Origin: Acidobacteriota bacterium
GTDB taxonomy: Bacteria; Acidobacteriota; UBA6911; RPQK01; JAJDTT01
Assembly (NCBI GenBank): GCA_965209055.1
Contig: OZ242374.1
Span: 288,001 to 352,000, forward strand
Direction: 5' to 3'
DNA: 64,000 nt
Shown here in pieces: positions 19,605 to 64,000 of this stretch; within the stretch, counting starts at the first letter, position 1, and each line of letters starts with the position of its first letter. A model generated the notes under the pieces. It saw nothing but the letters and a program-made list of their open reading frames with translations, searched no databases and was not told the DNA's origin. The translations under genes and the position numbers were made by a program.

Positions 19605-19608
19605 GGAA

Positions 19609-19692
19609 TAGGAGGGGCGATTTCCAATCGCCCGGTCTTCGTCGCCAAGTTTGTCACACCGGAGTCCGGCGGCTTTGCTGCCGCCGTGCTCC
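19609..19692. repeat. REP-like doublet, GGAG family
   Basis: TAGGAGGGGCGATTTCCAATCGCCC at 19609-19633, plus a degenerate inverted mate CGGCGGCTTTGCTGCCGCCGTGCTCC. Confidence 0.6.
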
Positions 19693-19704
19693 CGGCGGGG
19701 AATG

Positions 19705-19778
19705 CGCGCCCGGAGGGATTCGAACCCCCGACCCACGGATTAGAAGTCCGTTGCTCTGTCCAGCTGAGCTACGGGCGC
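19705..19778 (-). tRNA. tRNA-Arg (anticodon TCT), CCA not encoded
   Basis: Minus strand GCGCCCGTAGCTCAGCTGGACAGAGCAACGGACTTCTAATCCGTGGGTCGGGGGTTCGAATCCCTCCGGGCGCG folds into a full cloverleaf with a GTTCGAATC T-loop. Confidence 0.97.
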
Positions 19779-24758: not shown

Positions 24759-24816
24759 GGAGCGGCGACTTCCCAGTCGCCGAAAGGGGGGATAGGGAGG
24801 ACGCAGTCCCCCCTTT
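24759..24816. repeat. REP-like hairpin (GGAG family) followed by an AAAGGGGGG...CCCCCCTTT hairpin
   Basis: GGAGCGGCGACTTCCCAGTCGCCG at 24759-24782, between convergent genes. Confidence 0.6.
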
Positions 24817-48490: not shown

Positions 48491-49534
48491 TTGCCCAGAT
48501 TTTCCCCACAGGCTCTGAGGGAACTCGGCTATCGGCTCTTCCAGGCCGCGGGTTGCCGTTCGGAGGATGCCCGGGCCGTGGTGGACCACCTGGTGGAGTC
48601 GAGCCTCTTCGGCCACGATTCCCATGGAGCCATCCGGTTCTACGAGTACGCCCAAGGGATTCGCGACGGACGCTTCAATCCCGGCGCCCGGCCCAAGGTG
48701 GTCCGGGAGCGCCCCTGCTCGGCGGTGGTGGACGGAGGAGGCGCCCTGGGACAGGTGGGCGCCGCCTTCGCGACTCGCATCGCCATGGACAAGGCTCGGG
48801 ACCATGGCATGGCGACGGTCACGCTGCGCAACACCTGTCACATCGGCCGGGTGGGCACCTATCCGTTGATGGCCGCCCGGGCCGGCTTCATGGCCCAGCT
48901 CTTCGCCAACGCCGGCCACCTGGGGGCTCAGGTGATTCCCTTCGGGGGCCGGGAAGGGCGGCTGTCCACCAATCCAATGGCCTTCGCCGCTCCCCGCCGC
49001 GGCCACGAACCGCTGCTGTTGGACATGACCACCTCGGTGGTGGCCGAAGGGAAGGTCCGCGTGGCCATCAACCGCGGCGAGTCCATCCCCGAGGGTTGGG
49101 CCGTAGACGCCCAGGGCCGTTCCACCACCGATCCGAGGCAGGTCAAATCCGATCCGCCCGGGGCGCTCCTTCCGCTGGGTGGGGTGGTGGCTCACAAGGG
49201 CTACGGCCTGTCCATGATGGTGGAAATCATGGGAGGAGCCGTGGGCGGGGAGGGCTGCGCGGCCGGCGCCCCCAAGTTCGTCAGCAACGGAGTGCTCCTG
49301 ACCGTCTACCACATCGAGCACTTCACCGGCCTGGAGACCTACTACGACGAACTGGACGCCATGATCGCCCACGTTCGGACCAGCCGCCTGGCTCCCGGGT
49401 TCCAGGAGATCCTGCTTCCCGGCGAGCCCGAATTCCGGAGCGCCCGGAGGCGGGAGGCGGAAGGCATCGAGGTGGATGACGAGACCTGGGGTCAGATCCG
49501 CCAGCAGATGGAGTATTTCGGGGTCGGAGAGTAG
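48491..49534 (+). CDS. Ldh_2-family oxidoreductase, copy 2
   Basis: Same motifs as copy 1; TTG start after AGGAAAGGA. Confidence 0.9.
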   Translation: MPRFSPQALRELGYRLFQAAGCRSEDARAVVDHLVESSLFGHDSHGAIRFYEYAQGIRDGRFNPGARPKVVRERPCSAVVDGGGALGQVGAAFATRIAMDKARDHGMATVTLRNTCHIGRVGTYPLMAARAGFMAQLFANAGHLGAQVIPFGGREGRLSTNPMAFAAPRRGHEPLLLDMTTSVVAEGKVRVAINRGESIPEGWAVDAQGRSTTDPRQVKSDPPGALLPLGGVVAHKGYGLSMMVEIMGGAVGGEGCAAGAPKFVSNGVLLTVYHIEHFTGLETYYDELDAMIAHVRTSRLAPGFQEILLPGEPEFRSARRREAEGIEVDDETWGQIRQQMEYFGVGE

Positions 49535-49539
49535 GAGGG

Positions 49540-49554
49540 GGGACTGTTAGTCCC
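49540..49554 (+). repeat. Left att core GGGACTGTTAGTCCC
   Basis: Identical to 61284-61298; self-complementary (GGGACT-GTT-AGTCCC); begins 6 nt after the Ldh_2 stop. Confidence 0.88.
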
Positions 49555-49658
49555 AACTGTCCCACAGTCAACGACTACCGAACGTTAACGTTTTCAATAT
49601 GTTACCGGGTTCTTCGCTGGACCGGTGAGGTGGTTGACTCCCTTTGTTTGACATGCTG

Positions 49659-49679
49659 AACAGGCAACAAACAGGCAGC
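49659..49679 (+). repeat. Candidate integrase arm-type sites (left)
   Basis: AACAGGCAAC-AAACAGGCAGC tandem; the 15-mer GGCAACAAACAGGCA (49663-49677) recurs at 61175-61189. Confidence 0.65.
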
Positions 49680-49778
49680 TGAATCGGTTTCTGAAAGCCG
49701 ACGTGCCCGTTTTCCCCTTCCGTTGCCTGGCTCAGAGACCTTATCAATTGGGGATTATCCAGTTGACTTGACATATTC

Positions 49779-50021
49779 CTACGGAACCTCCTGGGATTTC
49801 GTCCGATAGGACCACGTTCTGTGCTTATGACCATGACCTATCAAGGTCAGACTCACCTGGCCAATCCCGCCATTGCGACACGCCTGAACGATGACCTCTT
49901 CGCGTAGCAACTCCTCCAACTTCTGTTCCAACAGGTCATAGATCTTGGGTGCTGCCGAGTCTGTAAGTTGTTCCCTGTTCCCCGATCCGACGGTTACCAC
50001 ATCGGCATGATCGTTCATCAT
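49779..50021 (-). CDS. Hypothetical protein (80 aa)
   Basis: Purine-rich upstream sequence and a protein-like amphipathic helix (KIYDLLEQKLEELLREE); no recognisable family. Confidence 0.4.
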   Translation of the reverse strand: MMNDHADVVTVGSGNREQLTDSAAPKIYDLLEQKLEELLREEVIVQACRNGGIGQVSLTLIGHGHKHRTWSYRTKSQEVP

Positions 50022-50531
50022 CTCCTAGCCTTTCCCAAAGATTTCTTTGTGCCGAGCTGGTCTGCCGGAGGCCGAAGGTGTCCGGCTTCGAACGGCTCGG
50101 CATTCCCAAGAATCGGCATCCCCGGCAAGTGTACTACGGCACGGTGGGGAAGACCCGGCGCTACTTGGTGTTCAAACTGCCGATTGCCGTCGAGGACGAC
50201 CGGGTCGTCCTCGACGGTGTCGATCCGGAGCCTGTGGCCACCAAGGGTCTGCGCTCCTGGATAGCGGCGCACCGGCGGTGGAGGATCGCTCCGTCTCAGG
50301 TGTGATCGCGATGACCACTCTCGACCGCCGCAAAGGTTTTTGGAGACTCGTTTCGGGTGTGCGTCAAGGGGTCTCGCGCCCGATCCGGGAGTGTGAATGG
50401 GACATGGGGGGTGGATTCACAAAAAGCGGTCCCGGTGATTCACACCTCCGCTTTCCCCGATCTGTTTTCCTTTCAGTCAGTTACGGCCCCATGCCCTGGG
50501 GTCCGCGTGGCCGCTCCGGGAGATCGGAGGT

Positions 50532-50631
50532 GGACGGGAGCGACCCCCCCTTTTTGCTGCCCGGTGCGGGCGCGGGGGTGTTGCGCAATTCACATTTGCG
50601 CAACACCCCCTGGGGGGGGTCGCTCCCGTCC
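50532..50631. other. Nested perfect inverted repeats (candidate oriT, ori or structured RNA)
   Basis: 19-bp outer arms at 50532-50550 and 50613-50631; 15-bp inner arms at 50574-50588 and 50596-50610. Confidence 0.6.
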
Positions 50632-51100
50632 CAAATATCCTTGCAGGAAGGCCCGGAGAAACCCCGTCTGTGCGCTTCCACGCAAAGACCGGACCACAAA
50701 GAGAGTTGCTGACGCACCGGAGAGAGACCCCATGAAGTGTCGGTATCCGGTTCTGGTTCTGGCTGGTTTGGCGGTAGTGACCGGGCACTACCAACAATGA
50801 CCCCTTTACCGGGCCGGGAGACAATGCCGTGCAGAATCTGATCGCCTTTCAGGATCTTCCGTTCGTACCGTGATCCAGGTGTCGTATTCCGCGGTCTCGG
50901 GCATCAATGTTACGCTGGCCGGTGTTTTCCAGCAGCCAGGAAGCCGCCTTACGCTTGATGTCTCGCCAGAATCAATCGACGAACTTGGGGTAGAATTGGT
51001 CTTGGAGGCGTTCCGCGAGGTGCGAACGGACACCGCGCCTAGCCAAGCCTCTTGCGGACACTCGCAGTTCAACTGATTGTCCGGCATCCAAGGGAGGATC

Positions 51101-53713
51101 ATGGCACCGCGCGGCAGCAAGGCGAGGCGGAACATCGAGACTTACGCGCACTCCGATAAGGAACGTGTCAACAACCCGCCGGTCGGATTGGTGACACCGG
51201 AGACAGATAGAGACGCTGGCGGTCAGCCCTACGCCCACGACCCGCATCTCGACCCTCAACTCTCCTGGGCCGGCAAGGCGGAGCACACATCCTTCGACGT
51301 ACCGACGGTCTCACTGCATGTGCACGAGCGGATCGACCCGCGTACGATTATCGAAGCGGTACGCAAGCCGAACGGCACCAAACGGCAGATGTCGCTGTTC
51401 GCTTCACCAAGTGAGAACCCGCCGCTCCGCCAAGCTATCGAGTTCTACAGGCACCGCCACAACTGGACCAACCGGCTGATCGCCGGTGACAGCCTTCTGG
51501 TCATGAACAGCATGATCGAGAAGGAGGGCTTGGGAGGACACGTCCAGATGGTCTACATCGACCCGCCTTACGGAATCCGCTACGGCTCCAACTTCCAGCC
51601 TTTCGTGAACCGGCGCGACGTGAGGGACGGCCGAGATGAGGATCTTACCCATGAGCCGGAGACGATCCGTGCTTTCCGAGATACTTGGGAGCTTGGCATC
51701 CACTCCTATCTCTCGCATCTGCGGGATCGTTTGTTGCTGGCGCGTGAACTACTCCATGAAACCGGAAGCTGCTTCGTACAGATCGGCGATGAGAACGTAC
51801 ACCACGTCCGGGAGGTGCTGGACGAGGTATTTGGGACGCACAATTATGTTACGCAGATCTATTTTTCGACCACAGGTGGGTTCGCTTCGTCAACGCTGAG
51901 CAGGGTCGGCGATTACCTTGTTTGGTATGCACGCGATCGATCCCGCATCAAGTGTCATCAGCTCTTCCAGGGCAAGCCGGGAATGGATACCGGAGATGCC
52001 GCCTATAAGAATCTCGAACTGGCGGACGGATCCCGAAGGTCTATGTCACGGGAGGAGCGCAACGGTCGTGAGCCGATTCCCGACGGCGCCCGAATCTTCA
52101 CCTATGACAATCTCCAGGGTTCAGGTTCGGCGAGCATTGACACGCCCTTTGAGTTCAACGGTGAAATATTCCGGCCCAATAGAAACAACCACTGGAAGGC
52201 GGCTTGGCCGGACGGAATGGCGCGGCTCAGGGCCGCCCGCCGCATCGGTCGTGTTGGGAATACGCTCCGGTACATTCGGTATATGGAGGACAATCCGGTA
52301 AACCCGCTGACAAATTCGTGGATGGATACGTCGTTTGCGGGGTTTGCGACGAACAAAAAGTACGTTGTAGAAACCAACCCCAAGGTTGTCCAGCGCTGTA
52401 TCTTGATGACCACGGATCCCGGCGATCTGGTCTTCGATCCGACCTGCGGTAGCGGAACCAGTGCGTACGTTGCCGAGCAATGGGGGCGGCGCTGGATCAC
52501 CTGCGACACGTCTCGAGTGGCAACCGCCTTGGCCAAACAGCGTCTGATGACCGCCAAGTTCGACTACTACGATCTTGCGCAAGCGGATGAAGGAGTTGGC
52601 AGCGGCTTCAAATATAAAACCGTGCCTCATGTGACCCTCGGCTCCATCGCCAACAACCCGGACATCAGCGAGGGTATGACACGGGAGCAGATCGGTCACG
52701 CCATCACGCGGCATGCGTCGCAGAAGACACTTTACGATCAGCCTGCTACCGACCGTACCAAAGCTCGCGTGACAGGCCCGTTCACGGTCGAAGCGGTCCC
52801 CGCCCCGTCTGTGCTCCCACTCGACGACATTTCCGAGGGTGAGGTGTTGCCCGCCGACGCCTCGGTGGCGCGCACGGGGCCGACGATTCGACAAGGCGAC
52901 TGGCGCGACGAACTTCTGAAGACCGGCATTCGCGGCAAGGCTGGCCAACACGTCTCGTTCGTGCGGCTGGAGCCGTTGCCTGGCGCAAAATGGCTTCACG
53001 CCGAGGGCGAGACGAGGCTCGACGAAGCTCCGGGACAAGGTGCTCCAGACACCGCGCCTAGCTCTCGCGTAGTCGTATCGTTCGGGCCGGATCACGCACC
53101 GATGGAGCAACGTCAAGTGGCGCTCGCGATCGAGGAATCGCATCGCTTGGTTCCGAAGCCGGCGGTCATCGTCTTCGCGGCATTTCAGTTCGACCCCGAG
53201 ACGTCGAAGGACATCGACGAGACAAACTGGCCCGGCGTCACGTTGCTCAAGGCGCAGATGAACGCCGACCTACTGACCGATGACCTCAAGAAGAAACGGG
53301 CGAGTAACGAGAGCTTCTGGCTCATTGGCCAACCGGACGTGGCGCTGGAGCACATTCCGGAAGGGGAGGACGAAGGCAGATTCCAGGTCTCGGTCCGAGG
53401 ATTCGACTACTACAACACAAAGACCGGCAATGTGGAGTCCGGCGGAGCCGACCGGATCGCACTCTGGATGCTTGACCCTGACTACGACGGGCGTAGCCTG
53501 TTCCCGCACCAAGTGTTTTTCCCGATGGCCAGCGCCAAGGATGGCTGGGCTAAGCTGGCCCGGAGCCTCAAAGCCGAGATCGACGCGACACTGATGACAT
53601 CCTACCATGGGACCGTCTCCCTCCCCTTCAAGTCTGGCAAGCAGGGGCGCGTAGCGGTCAAGATCGTGGACGACCGAGGTGTCGAGAGCCTCAAGATCGT
53701 GGAATTGGAGTAG
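51101..53713 (+). CDS. mod: Type III restriction-modification DNA methyltransferase (Mod, N6-adenine beta-class)
   Basis: NRLIAGDSL, VYIDPPY, AFRDTW, DLVFDPTCGSGT; GGGAGG Shine-Dalgarno before the ATG at 51101. Confidence 0.92.
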   Translation: MAPRGSKARRNIETYAHSDKERVNNPPVGLVTPETDRDAGGQPYAHDPHLDPQLSWAGKAEHTSFDVPTVSLHVHERIDPRTIIEAVRKPNGTKRQMSLFASPSENPPLRQAIEFYRHRHNWTNRLIAGDSLLVMNSMIEKEGLGGHVQMVYIDPPYGIRYGSNFQPFVNRRDVRDGRDEDLTHEPETIRAFRDTWELGIHSYLSHLRDRLLLARELLHETGSCFVQIGDENVHHVREVLDEVFGTHNYVTQIYFSTTGGFASSTLSRVGDYLVWYARDRSRIKCHQLFQGKPGMDTGDAAYKNLELADGSRRSMSREERNGREPIPDGARIFTYDNLQGSGSASIDTPFEFNGEIFRPNRNNHWKAAWPDGMARLRAARRIGRVGNTLRYIRYMEDNPVNPLTNSWMDTSFAGFATNKKYVVETNPKVVQRCILMTTDPGDLVFDPTCGSGTSAYVAEQWGRRWITCDTSRVATALAKQRLMTAKFDYYDLAQADEGVGSGFKYKTVPHVTLGSIANNPDISEGMTREQIGHAITRHASQKTLYDQPATDRTKARVTGPFTVEAVPAPSVLPLDDISEGEVLPADASVARTGPTIRQGDWRDELLKTGIRGKAGQHVSFVRLEPLPGAKWLHAEGETRLDEAPGQGAPDTAPSSRVVVSFGPDHAPMEQRQVALAIEESHRLVPKPAVIVFAAFQFDPETSKDIDETNWPGVTLLKAQMNADLLTDDLKKKRASNESFWLIGQPDVALEHIPEGEDEGRFQVSVRGFDYYNTKTGNVESGGADRIALWMLDPDYDGRSLFPHQVFFPMASAKDGWAKLARSLKAEIDATLMTSYHGTVSLPFKSGKQGRVAVKIVDDRGVESLKIVELE

Positions 53714-53739
53714 TGGAGGCTTCAGTGCGCCCGGGGACC

Positions 53740-54078
53740 ATGACTGCCAAAGACCAAGAGCGGCTGGCTTCCCGTATCGGCCTATCCATGAATGCCATCG
53801 CCGCGTTTTGCGACCGCTGGCAAGTGGAGGAACTTTCACTATTCGGTTCCGTGCTGCGCGATGATTTTGGGTGTGACAGCGACATCGACATACTGATCCG
53901 TTTCAAGACTCATCGTGCTCCGGGGCTGTTTGGGATTGCCGGAATGGAGCGGGAGCTGGCTGAATTGCTCGACCGCAGGGTCGATTTGGTGAACCGCGCC
54001 GCCATCGAGGAGAGTCGAAACTACATTCGTCGAAAGGCGATCCTGGAATCCGCGCAGGTTGTCTATGCCGCGCGATGA
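53740..54078 (+). CDS. mntA: Minimal nucleotidyltransferase (MNT) antitoxin
   Basis: LFGSVLRDDFGCDSDIDILI (GS-X10-DXD); RRVDLV. An alternative GTG start at 53713 overlaps the mod stop. Confidence 0.88.
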   Translation: MTAKDQERLASRIGLSMNAIAAFCDRWQVEELSLFGSVLRDDFGCDSDIDILIRFKTHRAPGLFGIAGMERELAELLDRRVDLVNRAAIEESRNYIRRKAILESAQVVYAAR

Positions 54079-54409
54079 CTCAGCGTATCTGCTGGACATG
54101 CTGCTTGCCGCGCGCGACGCGGTGTCCTTCACAGTAGGCATTTCGTACGACGAATTCGTACGAGACCGGCGGACCCAACTCTCTGTTCTGAAGTCGGTGG
54201 AGATCGTGGGCGAGGCGGCCGCACATGTGAGCGATGAAGCGAAGCGGGCGCACCCGGCCATCCCCTGGCGGGAGATCGTGGGCATCCGCAACCGTCTCGT
54301 ACACGTCTACTTCGACATAGACCTGCTACTCGTCTGGAATACGGTTCGTAATGACCTCCCGGTTCTGATTGGGCAATTAGAGCCCCTAGTACCACCGGAG
54401 GCCGGATAG
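54065..54409 (+). CDS. hepT: HEPN (DUF86) ribonuclease toxin
   Basis: EIVGEAA, IPWREIVGIRNRLVHVYF (RX4HXY). Confidence 0.9.
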   Translation: MPRDDSAYLLDMLLAARDAVSFTVGISYDEFVRDRRTQLSVLKSVEIVGEAAAHVSDEAKRAHPAIPWREIVGIRNRLVHVYFDIDLLLVWNTVRNDLPVLIGQLEPLVPPEAG

Positions 54410-57219
54410 TGCCACGCTCTACCATCGACCGGCTGATCGTCAATTCTCCCTACGAGGAACCGGCACAGCATTGGAGCTACGATCGGACTACGCGCCTGTT
54501 CGATCTTGCAGATGGTCGCAGACCCGCAGGATATGTGGTGGCATCGGGAGAGTCCCGGGCGTTCGACGATCCCGGCGCGTTTCGTGAAATTCCTCTGGTC
54601 AACCGAATCCGAGAGCGGGTCAAGGCGTGGCGTGCCGCTAGCTACCCCGGCGTGACAGGGATCACGAAGCGTCTTTTGGAGTACTGGCAGGATCCCGAAG
54701 AGTTCGAGAGCCGCCGGTTTTTCTTCTGCCAGCTTGAGGCGGTCGAAACGCTCATCTGGCTCACCGAAGCGCCGTCGGCCGAACGGGTGGGTATCGATAT
54801 CCCGTCCGACAGCGGCGCGTTCACGCGGCTCTGCGCCAAGATGGCGACCGGCTCCGGCAAGACCGTCGTCATGGCCATGGTCATCGCCTGGCATGTCCTC
54901 AACAAGGTGACAAACCCCCGAGATACCCGGTTCGCCCAGAATGTCCTTGTGGTCGCCCCCGGCCTTACGGTGCGGAGCCGACTGGCCGTTCTCGGACCGT
55001 CTCATGCCGAGAACTATTACGAGGCCTTCCGCGTCGTGCCTCCGGCACTGTTCGACAAGCTGCGCCGGGGCAAGGTCGTAATCCGCAACTGGCACGCGCT
55101 CAACTGGGAGACGGACGAGCGGATCGCCCGCAAGCGTAGCGTCGACAAGCGTGGCGCTAAGAGCGACGAAGCCTATGTCCGTGACGTGCTCGGGGACATG
55201 GCGAGCGCGAGGAACATTCTGGTGGTCAACGACGAGGCGCATCATGCATGGCGAGTGCCAGCCGGAGCCAAGATCAAGGGCGTCGCCAAGGGCACCGTCG
55301 AGGAAGCGACCAAATGGGTTGGCGGGTTGGACCGCATCCACCGGGCGCGGGGTATCCTCGTCTGCTACGACTTCTCCGCGACACCCTTCGTGCCATCGGG
55401 CAAGCGGAGTTCCGAAGAAGCGCTGTTCGGCTGGATCGTGAGCGATTTTGGCTTGAACGACGCCATCGAGTCCGGCTTGGTGAAGACGCCCCGGGTCGTG
55501 ATTCGCGACGATGCGGTGCCCGACGCCAAGACCTACAAGTCCCGCCTCTACCACATCTACAACGACTCTGAGGTCAGGGATGACCTTAACCGGCCGGCCA
55601 AGCCGGCGGAACCATTGCCGGACCTAGTGACGAACGGATACTACCTGCTCGGATACGACTGGCGCGAAACCGCCAGGGAATGGGCGGCGCGTGGAAATGC
55701 TACGCCTCCCGTGATGATCACAGTTGCTAACCGCACCCAGACAGCGGCCCGGATCAAACATGCGTTCGACCGCAAGCGGGTTCACATCGACGAACTCTGC
55801 GACCCCGAGCGGACGCTACATATCGACTCGAAGGTGCTCGCGACGGCAGAAGCCGCCGAGGAGCCGATCGCCAAGGTTGCAGCCGAAGGTAGCCGAGACC
55901 ACCCCGATAAGGTCCGAGTACGCAAATTGACGAAAAAGCAGCAGGCTGAACTGTTGCGTCAGCAGGTGGATACGGTGGGTCGGCTTGGACACGCAGGAGA
56001 ACGGATTCAGAACGTAATTTCGGTCGGAATGCTCTCGGAGGGCTGGGATGCGAAGACTGTCACCCACATCATGGGCCTCCGCGCCTTCACGAGTCAGCTT
56101 CTCTGTGAGCAGGTGGTGGGACGTGGACTGCGCCGCACGTCCTACGACGTGAACCCGAAAACCAGGCTTTTCGAGCCGGAATACGTCAACGTCTTCGGCG
56201 TACCCTTCACCTTCCTGCCGCACGAGGGCGGCGGGGATGGCCCACCCCCGCCGCCGAAACCCAAGACCGCTATTGAACCCGTGAGGGACAGACAACAGCT
56301 TTTCGAGATTTCATGGCCCAATGTCGTGCGTATCAATCACACCTACCGGCCGCGTCTGTCGCTCGATTGGGACCGGATAATGCCCCTCGTGCTCGATGCC
56401 GCCCGAACCGCACAGCTCGCCGAGCTGGCGCCCACGATCGACGGCAAGCCGGACACCACGAAGATTGATTCCATAGACCTCCAAGACCTCGCCCTCGAAT
56501 TCCGCACCCAGCGCATCATCTTCGAGACTGCGCGGGACGTGTACGACCAGATTCGGGAAAACTGGCCGGGCGAACGGACATTCCTGCTCGCGCAACTTGT
56601 GCGGCTCGTCGAACAGTTCATCCGGTCCGACAAGATCGCAATTATCCCCCCACTATTCCAAGTCGACGAGCTCAAGCGCCGCCTCGTCGTCACGCTAAAC
56701 ATGACCAAGGTGGTACAACACATCTGGGAAGCGATCCGCCACGAGAACACGGAGAGGCTAGAGCCGGTCTTCGACCGGGATCAGCCGATCCGCGCCACTG
56801 GAGACATGCGCACATGGTATACGGGTAAGCCTTGCGAACCCACGGCCCACAGCCACATCAACTTCTGCGTCTTCGACAGCGCGTGGGAAGCGTCCGAGGC
56901 TTTCGTGCTTGACAACGCCCCCGAGGTGGCCACGTGGGTTAAGAACGACCATCTTGGCTTCGAAGTGTTGTACGTCCATCGAGGCGTAGTGCGGAAATAC
57001 CGTCCCGACTTCCTTATCCGTCTCACGTCGGGCGACATGCTGGTGTTAGAGACCAAGGGCCGAGACACCGACCGCGAACGGACCAAGCGCATGTTCCTCG
57101 CCGAATGGGTCGAAGCCGTAAATCAGCATGGCGGGTTTGGACGCTGGGCTTGGGATGTCTCGACGACACCTGGCGACATCTACGGCATCCTCGAACGCCA
57201 CTTGCGCGGCGCTGCCTGA
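54409..57219 (+). CDS. res: Type III restriction endonuclease Res subunit (SF2 helicase + PD-(D/E)XK nuclease)
   Basis: KMATGSGKT (Walker A), NDEAHH, FSATP, MLSEGWD, EQVVGRGLRR, YRPDFL...VLETKG. Confidence 0.92.
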   Translation: MPRSTIDRLIVNSPYEEPAQHWSYDRTTRLFDLADGRRPAGYVVASGESRAFDDPGAFREIPLVNRIRERVKAWRAASYPGVTGITKRLLEYWQDPEEFESRRFFFCQLEAVETLIWLTEAPSAERVGIDIPSDSGAFTRLCAKMATGSGKTVVMAMVIAWHVLNKVTNPRDTRFAQNVLVVAPGLTVRSRLAVLGPSHAENYYEAFRVVPPALFDKLRRGKVVIRNWHALNWETDERIARKRSVDKRGAKSDEAYVRDVLGDMASARNILVVNDEAHHAWRVPAGAKIKGVAKGTVEEATKWVGGLDRIHRARGILVCYDFSATPFVPSGKRSSEEALFGWIVSDFGLNDAIESGLVKTPRVVIRDDAVPDAKTYKSRLYHIYNDSEVRDDLNRPAKPAEPLPDLVTNGYYLLGYDWRETAREWAARGNATPPVMITVANRTQTAARIKHAFDRKRVHIDELCDPERTLHIDSKVLATAEAAEEPIAKVAAEGSRDHPDKVRVRKLTKKQQAELLRQQVDTVGRLGHAGERIQNVISVGMLSEGWDAKTVTHIMGLRAFTSQLLCEQVVGRGLRRTSYDVNPKTRLFEPEYVNVFGVPFTFLPHEGGGDGPPPPPKPKTAIEPVRDRQQLFEISWPNVVRINHTYRPRLSLDWDRIMPLVLDAARTAQLAELAPTIDGKPDTTKIDSIDLQDLALEFRTQRIIFETARDVYDQIRENWPGERTFLLAQLVRLVEQFIRSDKIAIIPPLFQVDELKRRLVVTLNMTKVVQHIWEAIRHENTERLEPVFDRDQPIRATGDMRTWYTGKPCEPTAHSHINFCVFDSAWEASEAFVLDNAPEVATWVKNDHLGFEVLYVHRGVVRKYRPDFLIRLTSGDMLVLETKGRDTDRERTKRMFLAEWVEAVNQHGGFGRWAWDVSTTPGDIYGILERHLRGAA

Positions 57220-57405
57220 CCTGTACGAGTAGCCGGGCATGAGCCAAGGACGGACCGCGACTCACAAAGCTCGTCGCTCGCGACCCTACAAGGGGTTGTC
57301 GACGTTACTTGGTCGATTGCCGGATCCGAAGGCCGTCGGCATCTCGCGGTAGGCAGATCGCAAGGGACCGCGCACCCCAACTGTGCCGCCGCTGAAGGAG
57401 GAACG

Positions 57406-57981
57406 ATGATCTACCCGAAAGAAACGCTCACCCTAAAATTGTCAATGCCCCAGGAAGCCTGGGACCATTGGAAGTGCGGCCTGGGTAGGACACCGGTAGG
57501 AGCCGTTGTCCGAGAAGGGATTGAAGAGGTCCGGACACACCCCAAGGCACTCGCGAAACTAAAGCACCAATGCAAACATGTACGCGAATCTTCGGCGGCC
57601 TTTTCGAAAGATCTGCCAGAACCATCGGAGGCGGTCGTCATTGAGATTCAACTGCCCGGTGCTGACTGGATCGAGGTCTGTCAGCTGATCGGGGAACTAG
57701 ACACAGCCTTACACGACGGGCCGGTCAGCGACCAAGAACTACTCGCGGCGGTGATACTCGAGAGCGGAAGCTGGAAACAAACCGCAAAGGCCGAGTTTCG
57801 AGCTGGGTGGTGTACAAACCAACTGATTTCCTCTTCCACTAGCGGTCTGCTGAGATTCCACCTGGGAAAGCGGGGAAAGTTCGTAGCAGCAGTAGCAGCA
57901 GGAGCCACCGTGGTGATCGCAGCGACCACTGTTGCTCAAGCCGTGGCCTTATTTTGGGGGCTGTACTGCGAGTGCGGATAG
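57406..57981 (+). CDS. Hypothetical protein with C-terminal transmembrane helix
   Basis: AAGGAGG Shine-Dalgarno; hydrophobic tail FVAAVAAGATVVIAATTVAQAVALFWGL. Confidence 0.6.
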   Translation: MIYPKETLTLKLSMPQEAWDHWKCGLGRTPVGAVVREGIEEVRTHPKALAKLKHQCKHVRESSAAFSKDLPEPSEAVVIEIQLPGADWIEVCQLIGELDTALHDGPVSDQELLAAVILESGSWKQTAKAEFRAGWCTNQLISSSTSGLLRFHLGKRGKFVAAVAAGATVVIAATTVAQAVALFWGLYCECG

Positions 57982-58132
57982 GGCGTGGTGATGACGACTG
58001 AACCGGCACGAGATCGACTGGGGGCAGAGGAGAGATGTCAATCTAACAACTCCTGACCATCATCGCTCCCTCTTCCGTTACGATCGCCACTGGACCTTCG
58101 TTACGCTCGACAGACGATGATGCAAGCCGATG

Positions 58133-59503
58133 TTACCCGCGCTTAAGTAAGAGATTCAGCTCACGTTGTACGACTACGTACGGAAGACGCCTAAGGCTGA
58201 ACCGCTCGTAAAGTGGTGACAGCAGCTCGTGGACCACCTCGGCCAGATTGGCACTCAGGGTGTCCACACCAACATTCGTCGATAGCGAAACATCGTTGTC
58301 CCGGCAAATGCCCCCGGCCCAGACGGTGTCCCGCATCGGGTTTGCCCACGCGTACAGTCGCCTCCTGCGAAGTCCGGTATACCGGGCAACAAAGGAGACC
58401 GAATGGCCGCCTATGCGATCGGCAAGATACGCAGCGTGCCGGAGTGCTTCTCCGACCCGCACAATCGGTAGCGTCGGGTCCACACAGGTGCCTGGTTGAA
58501 TCCGAGCCTCCGCTGCCCGATCACCGTCCTCCTCGTAGCCTCGAAGCAAAAAGGCGAGTCCATCGGGTGTTATGCGCCAGAAGTCGGCGTGGGCAGCATC
58601 GTGAAGGCCTCGCTGAGGTGCGCTCGGATCGTCCCCGAGCCAGCACTCTAGGGCACCGTCGCGGGCGTAGGGTTCGATCTCCGGCCGCGTTGGCACCCAC
58701 CACGGGGGCCAGCCTGTGAGACGCGGTGCATCGGCCAAAACATCCAGCAGGTCACGAAGTCCTCCGAAGAATCTTCCGCCGTCAACATGGTAGGCGAACG
58801 TAAAGAATCCGTGCGGACAACGTGCCGGGCTGTCGGGCGGGAGTCCGGCGATTCTGTTTCGCCAGATACCTTCAGACTCCGACACCCACCGATCCAGTCG
58901 GGATATTTCCGTCTGATTTCTTTCCGATGAAGGCCTGCCACTCAGCAGATCCCGGATGTGATCAAGCAGCTCATCTTGCCGCGCCCGCAAGCACCTTCCA
59001 AGTAGTTCGTCCCACTCGCGTCCATTGTCAGGTTGTGCGCTTTGCGGCCCCGGTCGGCGGATGTAGATTGTGTGTTGTCGAACTATCCGATCTTCCGGAC
59101 CGTTGCGCTTCGCGCGGATGGGAACTCGGTGACCGCCCGGAACACCAATGATCGGGTGAGTGACGCCCGAGGTGGGATGTGGGACGTAATGCACCGAACA
59201 ATGAAACGCAGGTTCTGCATAATTGTGAACGATCCCGTTCACCTTGTCCTGAGAGTAGGCGTCGAGAGTATCCGGTCGTCCATCGCCAGTCCTAAAACCG
59301 GCGTCCGTCTCTGTGAGTCCGATGATCACATGTCCCCCACCATGGTTCGCCAATGCAAGCAAGGCCTGGGCGAGTTTCGCTTTGTGTTCATTGTTCCCAG
59401 TGAGGTCCAGCCAGTTCTTGATCTCAATGTCGAGTGCTTCCTGCGGCTCGCGCAGTAGATCCGCAAGTCGATTGTGTTCTGGCGATGGCGACGTCACGCT
59501 CAT
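58133..59503 (-). CDS. Schlafen/AlbA_2-domain protein with uncharacterised C-terminal domain
   Basis: EALDIEIKNWLD...ALANHGGGHVIIG, YIRRPG; AAAGGAGG Shine-Dalgarno. Confidence 0.82.
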   Translation of the reverse strand: MSVTSPSPEHNRLADLLREPQEALDIEIKNWLDLTGNNEHKAKLAQALLALANHGGGHVIIGLTETDAGFRTGDGRPDTLDAYSQDKVNGIVHNYAEPAFHCSVHYVPHPTSGVTHPIIGVPGGHRVPIRAKRNGPEDRIVRQHTIYIRRPGPQSAQPDNGREWDELLGRCLRARQDELLDHIRDLLSGRPSSERNQTEISRLDRWVSESEGIWRNRIAGLPPDSPARCPHGFFTFAYHVDGGRFFGGLRDLLDVLADAPRLTGWPPWWVPTRPEIEPYARDGALECWLGDDPSAPQRGLHDAAHADFWRITPDGLAFLLRGYEEDGDRAAEARIQPGTCVDPTLPIVRVGEALRHAAYLADRIGGHSVSFVARYTGLRRRRLYAWANPMRDTVWAGGICRDNDVSLSTNVGVDTLSANLAEVVHELLSPLYERFSLRRLPYVVVQRELNLLLKRG

Positions 59504-59922
59504 CGAGCGAGCCTCCTTTGCAGGCGTTTCAGGTCTGTCCTGAAGCCAACCATAGCATCCCTGACACGCCCCGTCCCATCGCGAAACCGCCTGCGGCGTC
59601 GCAACGCCGTCCTTTTCATCGAGACGAGCCGCCCTTCATCGCTATCGACCTGACCCGATTATGGACTTTGCCAACAATATTTCGCGGTCCACGGGGAAGG
59701 AGCATTCCCCCGATTCGCGGTGGCTCTCGGCCTCGGCCAGCAGATCTTCAGGACCGGGGCTTCGGGATTCCACAATAATTCTCCGAGAGAAGCTGTAGAG
59801 AGCGAGTCTCAGGGAGATAGAGGAGAGTGTCTGGGTCTTACCCTTGGGAAACAATTGCGGGATGTGGATCCGAGGCCGTCCTGCATTGATGACATGCGCG
59901 CGTCCCCAGTTCCACCATCAGC

Positions 59923-60147
59923 GTGGCGACCGTGGCCCAGTACCTGGACAAGGTCATCAGCACGATTCGCAAACTTGCCGATCTGAACATCATCCAAACC
60001 AGAGCCGACATGGATACTGCCGGCCGACATCGTCGCCCTGGAGGACCTGAACGCCGACGTCGATTCTCTGGAGCCGTGGTACGATTCGCCTCACGGCGAA
60101 GAACCCGGATCCAGAAAGGAGGAGATGCATGGGCATCTACAAGGTGA
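59923..60147 (+). pseudogene. Possible degenerate excisionase (HTH_17/MerR-like)
   Basis: (IS)VATVAQYLDKVISTIRKLADLNII resembles an Xis HTH and lies directly upstream of the integrase; there is an in-frame stop at 59890. Confidence 0.35.
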
Positions 60148-61217
60148 AGGATCGCCGGGGGAGACGACGCTATGTCGTCAGCAAGTACTGGCCGAACGGA
60201 TCCGGTCGGCTCCGAATGTACGCCCCCAACTACCGGAGCGCACAGGCGCTTCAAACACGAATCGAGTCCAGCATCCTGGACGGCACCTGGAAGCAGCTCA
60301 AGGAGGAGCTCGCCGGTGGGAAACGCACCATCTGGACGGTCCGGAGCTTCTACGAGCGTTTCTTCGAGGAGTACTGCAAACCTCGCATGCGCTCCCGGCG
60401 TCGCTATGCGCTCTCGTTCAAGAGCCTCAACGCCATGGTGGGGAACATTCCCCTGAAGGAGTTCCAACGCAAGGACCTTCACCGCTACGTCGCGAAACGG
60501 AAGGGGCAGGTCCAGCCGGCCACGGTGAACCGGGACATTGCCGCCATCAGCAAGCTGTTTTCCTACGCGCTGGAGTGCGGGGAAGTGGACACGCACCCGC
60601 TGGTGAGATTCCCCAAACTCAAAGAACCCAAGAAGGTCTTCCGGCCCTTGACGGTTCAACAGTTCCGCGACCTGGTCGAGGCGATGGACAACCCTTACCT
60701 GCAAGCCATGGTTGCGGTGATCGGCGAGACGGGGATACGAAAAGGCGAAGCCTTGTCGCTCACCTGGAAACGGGTGGACCTATCCCGGAGGCTGCTATGG
60801 GTGGAATTCACCAAGAACGACGAGCCGAGGGAGATCCCGCTGTCGAAGTACGCTGCTGGATATCTGGCCGGTCTGGTTCGTTACCTGAACACCCCTTACG
60901 TCTTCGTCAACACCCGGACCGGGACGAGATGGGTGAATCCGGACAAGCCGTTGCGTCGAGCCGCCGAGCGGGTGGGGTTGAAGGTCGGGTTTCACGACCT
61001 GAGACGATTCCGGTGCAGCCATTGGCTGATGCAGGGGGTGGACGTGAGGACGGTGCAGAAGCTGATGGGTCACTCGGCGATCAGCACGACGATGCGCTAC
61101 GCGGGGTACGTCAGTTCCCATGCGCTTGCCAGCATTCGGGAGGCACAGGCTACCGAAGACTCACAAACGCGCCCGGCAACAAACAGGCAACAGCTAGGAA
61201 ATAGGAGGAATGATTAG
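60129..61217 (+). CDS. int: Tyrosine recombinase/integrase with N-terminal arm-binding-like domain
   Basis: TGIRKGEAL (R), TKN (K), FHDLRR (HxxR), LMGHS (H), TTMRY (Y); AAAGGAGG Shine-Dalgarno. Confidence 0.95.
   Translation: MGIYKVKDRRGRRRYVVSKYWPNGSGRLRMYAPNYRSAQALQTRIESSILDGTWKQLKEELAGGKRTIWTVRSFYERFFEEYCKPRMRSRRRYALSFKSLNAMVGNIPLKEFQRKDLHRYVAKRKGQVQPATVNRDIAAISKLFSYALECGEVDTHPLVRFPKLKEPKKVFRPLTVQQFRDLVEAMDNPYLQAMVAVIGETGIRKGEALSLTWKRVDLSRRLLWVEFTKNDEPREIPLSKYAAGYLAGLVRYLNTPYVFVNTRTGTRWVNPDKPLRRAAERVGLKVGFHDLRRFRCSHWLMQGVDVRTVQKLMGHSAISTTMRYAGYVSSHALASIREAQATEDSQTRPATNRQQLGNRRND
61175..61191 (+). repeat. Candidate integrase arm-type sites (right)
   Basis: GGCAACAAACAGGCAAC, matching the left-end repeat. 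Confidence 0.65.
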
Positions 61218-61283
61218 AGGAGAGAGGGGGCGTAAACCTTTGAAAATAAATGCGCTCGACCTAATCTCAGCAGGACAGAGCAC

Positions 61284-61298
61284 GGGACTGTTAGTCCC
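61284..61298 (+). repeat. Right att core GGGACTGTTAGTCCC
   Basis: Identical to 49540-49554. Confidence 0.88.
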
Positions 61299-61344
61299 CC
61301 ATTCTTCCTTTCCCCGATCCTGCTCGGGGTCACTGTTCCACTGG

Positions 61345-61400
61345 AGTTCGGCGGTAAGAAAACCGCCGCTCCAGTTCGGCGGTTAGGAAACCGCCGCCCC
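61345..61400 (-). repeat. Two tandem REP-like hairpins (GGAG family, inverted orientation)
   Basis: AGTTCGGCGGTAAGAAAACCGCCGCTCC followed by AGTTCGGCGGTTAGGAAACCGCCGCCCC. Confidence 0.7.
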
Positions 61401-64000
61401 TATGCCTTGGCCAGGGCCGGCTCCCGGTGATCCATCGGCACCGGCTCGCCTTCGATGGTCACGTCGGGCAGGGAGAAGCTCTCTTCGATCCCGGTAGCGA
61501 CCTTCTCCAGCCGAACCGCGCTCACCTTGTACTCGGGACAACCGGTGAACTCGTCCTTGGCGTCTCCCACCAGGATGTTGGTGCGGGTCTCGGGATAGTG
61601 GAAGGTCATGAAGACGGTGCCCACGTTGCTGGCCTTGGTGATCTCGGCCTTGACCCGGACCCGTCCCCGGCGGGAGATCACATCCACCAATTCCCCTTCC
61701 TCGATGCCCAGGGAGCGGGCGTCGCGGGGATGGATCCGCACTGTCTCTTCACGGGCCTTGTCCAGCTTGCTCACGGCGGTGCGGCGGGTCTGGGTGCCCA
61801 CGTTGTAGTGGAAGAGCATGCGGCCGGTGGTGAGGTAGAAGGGGAACTCGTCGTCGGGCAGCTCTCCCGGTTCCTGCCAGGGGGTGACCGTCAACTGTGC
61901 CTTGCCGCGCAGGAAGTCCCCTCCCTCATGGACGATCTCCGTTCCCGGATGGTTCTCGTCCCAGCAGGGCCACTGGAGGAAGCCCTCCTTCTCCAGCCGG
62001 TCGTAGCGGACGCCGCCCCACTTGGGAGTGAGCCGGGCGATTTCGTCCATGATCCGGCTGGGGTCGATGGAAGTCCCCGGTCCGTCGTCGAAACCCAGGT
62101 CGAACCCCATGCGGCGGGCCACCGTGTTGACCACGTCGCCGTCGGCCAGGAGGCTGCCGGGCGGCGGCGCCACTTTGCGCACGCGCTGGATCCGGCGGTC
62201 GGAGTTGGTGAAGGTGCCGTCCTTTTCCAGGAACGTGGAGCCGGGCAGCACCACGTCGGCGTACTTGGCCGTCTCGCACATGAAGATGTCCTGCACCACC
62301 AGGAAGTCCAGCTTCTCCAGGGCTCCCACCACATGGGCCGTGTCCGGGTCCGACTGGGCGATGTCTTCGGCCAGCACGTACATGGCCTTGAGAGTGCCTT
62401 CGTGGGCCGCGTCGAACATGTCGGGGATGCGCAGACCGGCGTTGTCCGGCATGGAACAACCCCAGACCGCCTCGTGCTCGGCCCGCGCCTGGGGATCGGT
62501 GGTCTGGCGGTAGTCGCTGAAGACGTTGGGCAGCGCGCCCATGTCGGATGCGCCCTGCACGTTGTTCTGTCCCCGGATGGGACAGGTTCCTGTGCCGGGC
62601 CGCCCGATGTTCCCGGTCATGACCGCCATGTTGATCATGCCGAAGACGGCGTTGGAGCCGTGTCCGGCCTCGGTCACTCCCAGACCCCACAGGATCTGGC
62701 TGGCGCCGCTGGCCGCATACATCCGGGCCGCCTTGCGAATCAGCCCGGGCTCCACCCCGCTGATCTCGCCGGCCCACTCGGGCGTGCAGGATGCCAACTC
62801 GGCCCGGAGTTCGTCGAATCCTTCGCTGTACCGGTCGATGAAGTCCTGGTCGATGAGCCCTTCCGTGAGCAGGACGTGCTGCATGGCGTTGATCACGGCC
62901 ACGTTGGAGCCGGGCTTCAACGGCAAGTGCAGGTCGGACCATCTCGCCAGCTCCGTGTTCCGGGGGTCCAGGACGATGAGCTGGCAGCCCTTGAGGACGG
63001 CCTGTTTCATCCGGGCCCCGAAGACCGGATGGGCCTCCGTGGGGTTGGCGCCCACGATCATGAGCAGCTTCGACCTCTCCACATCCTGGAAGCTGTTGGT
63101 CCCGGCCCCCGTCCCCAACGCGGCGCCCAGAGCGAAGGCGGAGGGGGAGTGGCAGACTCGTGAGCAGTTGTCCACGGAGTTGGTCCGCATGATGGTGCGG
63201 GTGAACTTCTGGGTCAGGAAATTCTCTTCGTTGGTGCAGCGGGAGGAACTGATGAAGGCGAACCCTTCCGGGCCGTACCGTTCCCGGACCTCCAGTAGAT
63301 TGCTGGCGATCAGGTCGAAGGCCTCGTCCCAGGAGGCCTCGCGGAAGTTGCCTTCGCCGTCCTTGATCAGGGGAACCCGCAGCCGGTCCTTGCTCTTCCC
63401 GAATTGATGGGCGAACCGCCCCTTGACGCAGGTGTGGCCCAGATTCGCGCTCCCCTCGGGATTCGGCTCGATGTTGACGATCTCGCCGTCCTTCATGTTC
63501 ACGTTCAGCGAACAGCCGACTCCGCAGTAGCTGCAGGTGGTGGTGACGGTCTCGTCAGGCAGGCCGTGGGCCCGGGTCTGGGTCTCCTCCAGCGCGGCCA
63601 CGGGACACTCGAACACACACTGGCCGCAACTGACGCAGTCGGCCTCCTCGAACCCGGTGTCGTTCCCCGCGATGACCTGGACGTCGTACCCGCGGCCGGA
63701 CATTCCCAGGATGAAGGAACCCTGGATCTCGTCGCAGGCCCGCACGCACCGGGCGCAGCCGATGCACTTGTCCATCTCCAGCTTGATGAAGGGATGGGTG
63801 TTGTCCATGGGGGGTGTGTGCGTGCGCGGGTTCTCGTAACGGGGAGTGCGCAGACCCACGTCCTGGGCCAGGGACTGGAGCTCGCAACGCCCGTTGGCGG
63901 TGCAGTCCAGGCATTCCAGCGGATGGTCCGAGACGATCAGCTCGGTGATGTTGCGACGCAGACGGGTGAGCAGGGGCGACCGGGTGGTGTAGACGCCGCC
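61400..64000 (-). CDS. fdhF: Formate dehydrogenase alpha subunit (Mo/W-bisPGD, Cys-type), 5' end beyond the window
   Basis: HPLECLDC...C, CIGCARCVRAC, CVSCGQC, CSYCGVGC, TCVKG, DNCSRVCH, RGQNNVQG. The frame stays open to the window edge. Confidence 0.93.
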   Translation of the reverse strand, partial: GGVYTTRSPLLTRLRRNITELIVSDHPLECLDCTANGRCELQSLAQDVGLRTPRYENPRTHTPPMDNTHPFIKLEMDKCIGCARCVRACDEIQGSFILGMSGRGYDVQVIAGNDTGFEEADCVSCGQCVFECPVAALEETQTRAHGLPDETVTTTCSYCGVGCSLNVNMKDGEIVNIEPNPEGSANLGHTCVKGRFAHQFGKSKDRLRVPLIKDGEGNFREASWDEAFDLIASNLLEVRERYGPEGFAFISSSRCTNEENFLTQKFTRTIMRTNSVDNCSRVCHSPSAFALGAALGTGAGTNSFQDVERSKLLMIVGANPTEAHPVFGARMKQAVLKGCQLIVLDPRNTELARWSDLHLPLKPGSNVAVINAMQHVLLTEGLIDQDFIDRYSEGFDELRAELASCTPEWAGEISGVEPGLIRKAARMYAASGASQILWGLGVTEAGHGSNAVFGMINMAVMTGNIGRPGTGTCPIRGQNNVQGASDMGALPNVFSDYRQTTDPQARAEHEAVWGCSMPDNAGLRIPDMFDAAHEGTLKAMYVLAEDIAQSDPDTAHVVGALEKLDFLVVQDIFMCETAKYADVVLPGSTFLEKDGTFTNSDRRIQRVRKVAPPPGSLLADGDVVNTVARRMGFDLGFDDGPGTSIDPSRIMDEIARLTPKWGGVRYDRLEKEGFLQWPCWDENHPGTEIVHEGGDFLRGKAQLTVTPWQEPGELPDDEFPFYLTTGRMLFHYNVGTQTRRTAVSKLDKAREETVRIHPRDARSLGIEEGELVDVISRRGRVRVKAEITKASNVGTVFMTFHYPETRTNILVGDAKDEFTGCPEYKVSAVRLEKVATGIEESFSLPDVTIEGEPVPMDHREPALAKA

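Follow-up and report, generated by a model that had tools for sequence, protein, structure and literature searches.

We analysed a window of 64,000 nucleotides (nt) of DNA from an Acidobacteriota bacterium; the window is the whole stretch, positions 288001-352000 of the source genome G000 (a single contig of 6,077,182 bp). The subject of this study is an 11.7-kb island at window positions 49540-61298, which encodes a tyrosine integrase and is bounded by direct repeats of the 15-mer GGGACTGTTAGTCCC at 49540-49554 and 61284-61298, both on the + strand. These were the only two copies in the window with one mismatch allowed. The expected window count was 0.01, and two or more matches were found in 0 of 100 shuffled sequences. 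The left copy was preceded by GGAG-GG, the first G of GGAG being the last base of the TAG stop codon (49532-49534) of the host gene ldh2, and the right copy was followed by CC-ATTCTTCC. Joining the outer flanks gave GGAG plus an 8-bp stem (GGGGGACT / AGTCCCCC) around GTT. G+C content was 0.52-0.63 within the island versus 0.65-0.70 in the flanks. The island starts with 1.5 kb that has no convincing open reading frame (ORF); genes for a type III-like methyltransferase, for an MntA/HepT pair, for a restriction enzyme, for two proteins with no assigned role and for the integrase follow in that order. The host genes, attachment (att) sites and integrase gene were as follows.

48491-49534, + strand: Ldh_2, malate/L-lactate dehydrogenase family, left host gene (Pfam Ldh_2, E 2.3e-108)
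49534-49554, + strand: attL, GGAG-GG of the hairpin plus the first 15-nt repeat GGGACTGTTAGTCCC (from sequence)
60129-61217, + strand: tyrosine integrase, 362 amino acids (aa) (Pfam Phage_integrase, PF00589, 93.8 bits, cut-off 27.1)
61284-61306, + strand: attR, the second 15-nt repeat plus the right part of the hairpin, CC, and the tail ATTCTTCC (from sequence)
61338-61393, + strand: two further hairpins of the CGGCGGT.. type, in a cluster resembling a bacterial interspersed mosaic element (BIME), opposite in orientation to the att hairpin (from sequence)
61400-63859, - strand: formate dehydrogenase alpha subunit-like protein, right host gene (NCBIfam TIGR01591, 823.9 bits, cut-off 666.25)

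An original prediction, made from the letters of the window, had stated that the island appears to integrate into a repetitive extragenic palindromic (REP) hairpin rather than a tRNA gene. The two 15-mers, the rebuilt GGAG hairpin around GTT, the comparison hairpins that it quoted near 24759 and 19609, and the position of the site between convergent genes (Ldh_2 +, Fdh-alpha -) were all found as it described. It had also noted two inverted family copies past the rebuilt site. These hairpins (28 nt, 82% identical) are real, but one is a direct copy of the other, and the pair is inverted only when compared with the att hairpin.

The integrase gene ends 66 nt before the right 15-nt repeat. Motif inspection and alignment to solved chains assigned the catalytic residues R204, K229, H289, R292, H298 and Y324; the best solved relatives were integrase and Xer chains (E 6.9e-18). 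The R-K-H-R-H-Y motifs were kept in all 26 paralogues of G000. About 90 residues precede the core-binding domain. A Pfam search with this N-terminal region gave no match even at E<=10. Its language-model neighbours were the Tn916 Integrase_DNA and Arm-DNA-bind families (score 0.96, a lead only at just 122-144 shared features), and the region may be an arm-binding domain.

A protein search revealed 26 full-length, stop-free integrase frames in G000, with 89-100% aa identity, plus fragments. When the inner 400 nt of each island end was used for a genome-wide arm search, the conserved left and right arms paired into 26 elements of 2,669-25,050 bp (element names run from E01 to E29). For 25 of these, a direct repeat of 7-15 bp with a hairpin loop at its centre could be read from the junctions, and joining the outer flanks restored a GGAG hairpin. 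The junction of the 26th, E29, was cut by the contig end: the G000 contig terminates within the right arm of E29 (6,074,465-6,077,182), and the opening bases of the contig are not a continuation of that arm. The G000 assembly is broken or unclosed at a copy of this repeat. The elements fell into four classes by repeat and target.

Class A, 9 elements including the window island: 15-bp repeat; target GGAGGG-core-CC
Class B, 7 elements: 14-bp repeat; the same REP reversed; the element's own site (attP) has the loop AAC, not GTT
Class C, 5 elements: 11-bp repeat; GATTTCCAATC inside GGAGGGGCGATTTCCAATCGCCC; E06 is a TCT loop variant
Class D, 5 elements: 7-10 bp repeat; GGAGTGGGGGTTTTCCTACCCCCACT-type hairpins

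In class D the shared identity shrank to seven central bases, TTTCCTA or TTTCCAA. Seven bp is the size of a tyrosine-recombinase overlap; on this reading strands would be exchanged at the loop, and the arms of the hairpin would be the inverted core sites. For the window island, the overlap at attL is probably CTGTTAG, centred on the hairpin loop, if its position is read across from the sublineage with the 7-bp direct repeat. On the integrase gene tree, classes C and D formed starred clades and classes A and B interleaved, with starred pairings of E21_A with E11_B and of E18/E27_A with E07_B. Insertion orientation therefore follows the attP loop and not the protein. E14 had a class C attP and an integrase of the class C clade, yet it occupied a REP with different arms and the identical 7-bp centre.

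Six minimal elements (2.67-3.13 kb) consisted of ~1.55 kb of conserved DNA plus the integrase gene. The 1.55 kb showed no codon periodicity (variable sites 60/85/74 by phase, versus 25/13/71 in the integrase gene). The integrase is accordingly the sole coding gene of the 2.7-kb minimal element, which encodes no DDE/DEDD transposase. E18 and E27 were 100% identical, E13 and E29 were 99.6% identical, and the cargo-bearing elements E10 and E16 (10-12 kb) had near-identical integrases. The flanks differed within each of these pairs, indicating recent movement of minimal and cargo-bearing elements alike. Orphan left arms, integrase fragments and copies of the non-coding module described below clustered at ~463-485, 1,582-1,609, 2,677-2,680 and 3,841-3,845 kb of G000; these clusters are probably decayed or tandemly accreted elements.

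We examined whether the hairpins exist independently of the elements. The alternative is that they are the element's own termini or footprints, spread by insertion and excision, so that REP targeting would be a circular notion. G000 contained 37 copies of the 15-mer: 17 class A ends, 7 class B left ends, 1 orphan left arm and 12 unoccupied GGAG...CC sites. Thus 25 of the 37 are element ends, as this alternative would have it. The ATTCTTCC tail also trails unoccupied copies of the att hairpin, and at 5 of the 12 unoccupied sites a second hairpin ending in CTCC followed, a BIME-like arrangement. Eight congeners (G001-G008) were searched for the 15-mer variant. It was absent from four of them (G002, G004, G005 and G006) and present once each in G003 and G007, a distribution that again favours footprints; G001 had 18 copies and G008 had 17. 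However, G001, a single contig with 99% completeness, had no integrase match at E<=1e-60. All the copies examined in G001 (9/9) and G008 (10/10) were unoccupied, with GGAG...CC context, the usual REP tail and no element arm.

The hairpins also form large families. The class C hairpin core GGCGATTTCCAATCGCC had 79 exact copies in G000, a count that speaks against footprints. Among 3051 perfect hairpins (stem >=7 bp), 546 had GGAG or CTCC within 7 nt, versus 98-260 for seven control tetramers; the version of this statistic with stems of >=6 bp did not discriminate (11.9 per 1000 GGAG versus 7.0-12.1 for controls), and the family assignment is based on exact copy numbers and the >=7-bp statistic. 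The largest GGAG-hairpin families had 42, 41, 33 and 28 copies. These genome-wide counts confirm that the GGAG hairpins are a repeated family, as originally predicted. The repeat unit is longer than the hairpin: a 76-nt query (window 19605-19680) matched 85 places, 31 of them over at least 50 nt. The REPs in the examples were extragenic; their positions were just past the stop codon of ldh2, downstream of the tRNA-Arg gene, and in the gap separating convergent genes.

A 252-aa ORF in G000 resembled a REP-associated tyrosine transposase (RAYT): it matched Y1_Tnp with 30.8 bits (cut-off 23) and contained the HUH-type motif PNHVHVL. Three family hairpins lay within 180 nt of the start of this gene, on the upstream side only. 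The RAYT-like gene and its adjoining hairpins are a REP-RAYT signature, and the att hairpins are true host REPs. The gene (locus L095:1336-2094, - strand; G000 1,142,805-1,143,563) lies ~200 bp from the attR of E06; E06 was inserted into a REP cluster beside the RAYT-like gene. A second REP type (GCGGGGGTTAACAACCCCCGC), found next to unoccupied att hairpins, was split at its loop in two places, each time by an identical foreign end (L115:1550-3015, at ~781.3 kb of G000, and ~3,903.8 kb). The insert at L115 encodes a DDE_Tnp_1 transposase (E 1.9e-16); an ordinary REP-targeting insertion sequence (IS) therefore coexists with the integrase elements. The hairpins beside the RAYT-like gene and the DDE-transposase IS in the neighbouring hairpin type both argue against footprints, and we consider that explanation very improbable.

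Relatives were searched for empty sites. For E13, the left flank plus core aligned to 1202-1515 (96.2%) and the core plus right flank to 1501-1815 (91.4%) of locus L097 in G008, the two alignments overlapping by exactly one 15-mer. Equivalent empty sites for E21 were found in G001 and G008. At the locus of the window island, the ldh2-fdhF spacer was uninterrupted (49-147 bp) in G001, G002, G003, G004, G006 and G008, and G005 and G007 had other inserts of ~2 kb between the two genes. A GGAG hairpin followed the ldh2 stop in G002, G003, G004 and G008; its REP variant differed from that of the window. The expected empty ldh2-REP-fdhF site was thus recovered as an uninterrupted spacer in six congeners and as a GGAG REP in four, but the exact hairpin predicted there was not seen. 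This difference is a further point in favour of footprints, in that the central bases at the window locus could have come from attP. Joints 49554->61348, 61372 and 61376 in public Logan contigs were considered as the empty ldh2-fdhF site and rejected; the short side was 22-24 nt and the flanks were those of other REP sites.

Integrase matches at E<=1e-60 numbered 28 in G000, 10 in G004 and 0-2 in the other members of the genus. Close relatives of the integrase (>=74% identity) came from records titled Acidobacteriota or Aminicenantes metagenome-assembled genomes and from one contig labelled Rhodothermales; beyond these, identity was <=36%. Fourteen attR junctions in other genomes were readable: 13 joined the right arm to half a REP and 1 joined it to a tRNA. 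In one relative, sister integrases occupied different loops. With 26 elements in REP hairpins in G000 and 13 further REP hybrids among the relatives, the prediction that this integrase uses a multi-copy REP hairpin as the host site (attB) was supported. Sequencing runs containing parts of window 48900-50100 were mostly labelled sponge metagenome and came from several studies; three runs of one sample contained 82% of the sampled words. The host lineage is apparently sponge-associated Acidobacteriota.

The right arm of the island contained a further clue to its history. Window 61252-61283 matched a decayed 5′ half of tRNA-Arg(TCT), comprising the acceptor and D arm, running into the core. The intact gene lies elsewhere in the window.

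19704-19778, - strand: tRNA-Arg(TCT), unoccupied in G000 (ARAGORN)

A REP, GGAG-GGGCGATT-TCC-AATCGCCC, lies at 19609-19633, ~70 nt downstream of this tRNA gene. Right-end matches to nucleotides 4-33 of the tRNA, directly beside the core, were found in 17 paired elements and in two degenerate copies besides; the 3′ half of the tRNA matched other tRNAs only. On sequence similarity, the integrase-side arm of every element appears to bear a vestigial 5′ half of tRNA-Arg(TCT). In G003, an attL was found that consisted of host flank, tRNA nt 1-42 and a left arm homologous to that of the window element. The corresponding attR, ~47 kb away, had an integrase (84% aa identity) and a right arm fused to a complete tRNA-Arg. 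In this 47-kb element, a member of the family has integrated at the anticodon loop in the classical manner. At locus L030, an integrase 87% identical over the residues present was followed after 40 nt by an intact tRNA-Arg(TCT), and more distant integrases (~30% identity) were also beside tRNA genes. In G002 and G006, a difference of 2.7-2.9 kb on the downstream side of tRNA-Arg was considered as a minimal element and rejected, as it shares nothing with one.

The 7-bp centres formed a graded series: CTTCTAA (tRNA), TTTCTAA (E06 REP), TTTCCAA (class C), TTTCCTA (class D), CTGTTAG/CTAACAG (classes A and B), and further variants in relatives. The loop of the E06 REP differs by one base from the anticodon loop. 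These similarities suggest that the lineage moved from the tRNA anticodon arm to look-alike REP hairpins. A quick protein tree with relatives left the base of the family unresolved; the direction of the move is thus read from the tRNA vestige rather than from a root. The statement that the island uses a REP rather than a tRNA was therefore correct for the 26 of 26 G000 copies that lie in REPs, but incomplete for the family, of which the G003 and L030 members lie in tRNA-Arg(TCT) and whose arms keep a tRNA half. Homologues inserted in tRNAs with unrelated att cores had been named as evidence against REP targeting. Homologues in a tRNA were found, but their cores are related: the anticodon arm resembles the REP hairpin, so that the tRNA accounts for how REP targeting arose and is no refutation of it.

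The tRNA-inserted element also bears on which enzyme moves the islands. Because a RAYT-like gene exists, one copy of it ~600 bp from E06, the islands might be moved by the RAYT/REP system, or by host Xer-type recombinases, with the resident integrase as a passenger. The att sites are dif-like palindromes, and the best-scoring NCBIfam models of the integrase were Xer, under their cut-offs, both of which fit this view. However, the junctions are half REP plus element half and not a whole REP per side, and the empty site is one REP. An intact integrase lies beside attR in every element including the 2.7-kb minimal ones, the integrase clades track att classes C and D, and the same arms and integrase are used at the tRNA gene in G003. 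We give the passenger explanation hardly any weight.

Since the attB and attP cores are foldable, and the class A attP adds the inverted repeat GGACAG...CTGTCC around the core, we also considered integration via folded single-stranded hairpins, as with integron attC and CTX-phage attP, in place of duplex sites. Folded single strands are known substrates of tyrosine recombinases, in integrons as well as in CTX phage. Here, however, ordinary direct repeats flank every element, and the tRNA-inserted member has a 42-nt identity segment in the arrangement that is classical for duplex sites. Integron-integrase models scored far under their cut-offs (TIGR02249, 61.5 bits versus 265; NF011946, 27.7 versus 435). 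No observation requires single-stranded substrates, and such a route is highly unlikely for this family.

The arms of attP and an adjoining non-coding segment were compared among elements.

49555-49705, + strand: left attP arm, with the palindrome ACTGTCCCACAGT beside the core and ACAGGCA at 49660-49666 and 49671-49677 (alignment)
50061-50652, + strand: conserved non-coding segment, homologous to minimal elements (no 3-nt periodicity, stops in all frames)
61160-61283, + strand: right attP arm, with ACAGGCA at 61183-61189, a TTGAAAATAAA box and the tRNA-Arg half (from sequence)

The left arm was conserved over ~150 nt in 20 aligned G000 elements drawn from all four classes, as well as in the G003 element within tRNA-Arg. 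Each of the 6 minimal elements had ACAGGCA on one strand, with two copies in the left arm and one or two in the right. It was confined to the arms in 5 of the 6; E21 had one extra reverse-strand copy. Its density in the genome was 0.066 per kb. These motifs are candidate arm-type integrase sites.

Within the non-coding segment, a structured module of ~280 nt (~50360-50650; also at L150-L179) showed 90-99% per-column conservation across 39 G000 copies, with stops in every frame and no periodicity. It was present once in every element, in integrase orientation, and also as solo copies. Its occurrence in the order was patchy: 12 of 76 genomes had it, including all 8 other genomes of the genus and 0 of 6 of the sister genus; a copy in another family had 89% identity. 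Compensatory changes occurred at 11 of 46 predicted pairs in 24 diverse copies, versus 3.4 +/- 1.5 in shuffles (0/500 reached 11) and 1-6 in slid controls. One-sided changes were mostly G-U compatible on the integrase-sense strand. A search of the non-coding part against Rfam gave no family at gathering score (best 27.4 bits versus 53.1), and the small ORFs of the non-coding arm had no Pfam match at E<=1. The module could act as an RNA or as a cis-acting DNA element, for example an origin of transfer (oriT). In 24 elements, the conserved non-coding parts were searched for a guide-like copy of the att core (>=9 nt), and none was found. A core match that recurs in class D falls within the integrase gene, and is taken to be LFSY codons common to the other classes; a few single matches of 9-10 nt lay elsewhere (E03/E11, E05, E06, E25).

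Classes A and B differ by loop inversion only and interleave on the tree, E14 has different arms and the same centre, and the sister integrases of one relative differ in loop. On this basis we suggest, tentatively and at somewhat less than even odds, that the 7-bp attP centre mainly sets the target, that mutating or inverting the loop would retarget an element to a new REP variant or flip its orientation, and that the ~280-nt module is a required cis element or RNA.

The cargo of the window island is mostly anti-phage. Its genes were as follows.

51077-53713, + strand: type III-like DNA methyltransferase (Mod) (PADLOC MTase_III, E 6.3e-158; Pfam N6_N4_Mtase)
53713-54078, + strand: MntA-like nucleotidyltransferase (Pfam NTP_transf_2, 9.2e-15; NCBIfam MntA match under cut-off)
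54059-54409, + strand: HepT-like RNase (Pfam HepT-like, 9.6e-27; NCBIfam HepT match under cut-off)
54409-57219, + strand: restriction endonuclease/helicase (Res) (NCBIfam BPTD_3080 family, 1128.9 bits, cut-off 800; Pfam ResIII)
57406-57981, + strand: 191-aa ORF, no family in profile searches
58133-59503, - strand: 456-aa protein (weak Schlafen AlbA_2 match, 22.5 bits, under the cut-off of 25.3)

The MntA/HepT-like pair, a type VII toxin-antitoxin, lies between mod and res (53713-54409), and the frames overlap or abut. An 80-aa ORF at 49779-50021 (- strand) lies in a stretch missing from the minimal elements; its first ~47 residues are protein-like, and its best Pfam match had E 0.21.

Cargo across the family was assigned from crude ORF calls at Pfam E<=1e-8 (E20 excepted, 1.8e-6). 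Matches to restriction-modification (R-M), abortive infection (Abi), GmrSD or CRISPR-Cas (short palindromic repeats that are clustered and regularly interspaced, with their associated proteins) genes were found in 13 of 20 cargo-bearing elements. The assignments were as follows.

Type I R-M: E08, E15, E22, E26
Type III-like R-M: E01
MmeI-, Eco57I- and ISP-type enzymes: E23, E20 (E 1.8e-6) and E28
NotI plus D12 methylase: E26
GmrSD: E10, E16, E14
AbiTii and Abi_alpha: E07
Cas1, Cas3-like and GSU0054: E17 (L140:4712-10047, L141:140-1771)
Large leucine-rich repeat proteins of 1182 and 1115 aa, with no other recognisable cargo in these two class C elements: E05, E24 (L129:3477-7025, L145:1768-5115)

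The cargo of E17 is a CRISPR-Cas locus in a REP-inserted element. Other elements carried insertion sequences or nothing recognisable (E03, E04, E11, E25). Nested in the cargo of E15 (L137:6098-9942) were three consecutive further tyrosine-recombinase genes, of which two overlap, an arrangement that recalls "recombinase in trio" elements. Some elements contained ORFs of 475 and 539 aa, which were rejected as genes; they had no Pfam match and a composition unlike protein, and were treated as spurious or antisense.

We propose that the window island is a member of a family of integrase elements that insert into host REP hairpins, in a lineage that switched from tRNA-Arg(TCT), and put the probability of this reading at roughly 0.87. 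The family would be mobilised by its lambda-type tyrosine integrase, with an attP core that mimics the tRNA anticodon stem-loop. The ancestral target would have been the anticodon loop of tRNA-Arg(TCT), where the element would bring the 5′ 42 nt so that integration rebuilds the gene. In this genus, the target would then have switched to GGAG-type REPs, which offer the same geometry of inverted G/C-rich arms around a 7-bp centre. The two arms of the hairpin presumably serve as core sites for integrase dimers, which would exchange strands over the loop-centred 7-bp overlap, with the asymmetry of the loop setting the insertion orientation. The candidate ACAGGCA sites in both arms of attP may assemble the intasome. 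Multi-copy intergenic REPs would make many neutral sites occupiable. Sub-lineages would retarget through changes in the attP loop, and cargo, mostly R-M and other defence genes, would ride along. The elements may still excise today.

Several points weigh against this proposal. The exact pre-insertion hairpin at ldh2-fdhF is inferred, and no relative has that variant there. The class D hairpin has 1 intact exact copy versus 3 occupied ones, so the supply of landing sites is unequal among the sub-lineages; the predicted abundance of landing sites for defence islands was borne out by the 26 elements, with class D targets rare. Conservative site-specific recombination alone does not explain 26 copies. 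The contamination estimate of the single-contig G000 assembly is 7.4%, and some near-identical copies could in principle stem from mixed strains, though their flanks differ. The arm-binding domain of the integrase, without a Pfam match, stays an unproven candidate. Public short contigs break at repeats, and they give no direct evidence of excision or circular forms.

If the proposal is correct, one genus shows the whole transition: a tRNA-Arg member, a REP loop that differs by one base, further REP radiations, and a fossil tRNA half throughout. This would offer a specific and testable path along which site-specific integrases come to use new targets. It would explain how a single integrase island can be present 26 times in one bacterium, with cargo that varies among R-M, Abi, GmrSD and CRISPR-Cas genes, and suggests that REP families influence the sites at which defence islands collect. 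If the 7-bp centre does set the target, a tRNA-specific integrase would have become a quasi-programmable, IS-like vehicle with REPs as genome-wide landing pads for defence systems; overlap identity as the main determinant would also make the enzyme a possible tool for multi-site integration.

Lambda-type integrases are textbook single-site enzymes, with tRNA genes as their classic targets, and the anticodon loop is one recognized sublocation among tRNA/tmRNA integration sites. The present family resembles tRNA anticodon-loop islands and prophages in its enzyme, in an attP whose tRNA segment extends to the anticodon loop, and in an integrase beside the rebuilt tRNA. In both, a 7-nt loop and symmetric stem serve as overlap and core sites, and the G003 and L030 members do this at tRNA-Arg(TCT) itself. 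In contrast to such islands, 26 of 26 G000 copies and 13 of 14 readable foreign copies use REP hairpins, the tRNA half is a vestige, and the copy number per genome is IS-like.

To our knowledge, REPs have been known as targets only of transposase-type insertion sequences. We found no tyrosine integrase or genomic island with a REP as attB in the literature covered, which excluded most subscription journals and supplements and is not proof of absence. IS1397 and IS621 were named in the original prediction as REP-targeting elements. Published work describes REP targets of ISPsy8 (IS3 family), ISPa11, ISPpu9 and ISPpu10 (IS110 family) (PMC1525189), REP targeting by ISPpu10 (preprint 10.64898/2026.03.19.712850) and REP-RAYT biology (PMC3390384). 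The present elements share with these insertion sequences the use of multi-copy extragenic palindromes as specific, presumably harmless targets. Those insertion sequences use DDE/DEDD transposases (bridge-RNA guided in IS110) and are described as plain ISs without cargo; the present elements instead have a tyrosine integrase, attP x attB logic, cargo of up to ~22 kb, and conserved non-coding parts in which the guide search described above found no target copy.

The family also resembles integron attC systems and integrative mobile elements exploiting Xer (IMEX) at dif, in which a tyrosine recombinase acts on a short imperfect palindrome, either at many sites (attC) or at a palindromic host site (dif). 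Unlike integrons, it has no cassette array and no attI, and its integrase scores far under the integron-integrase model; unlike IMEX, the element encodes its own integrase. Strand-biased circularizing integrative elements have several recombinase genes and loose target choice. They are likewise tyrosine-recombinase elements with cargo at several chromosomal sites; the present elements differ in having one integrase and a defined, structured target family. In this family, a known enzyme class is applied to a new class of target.

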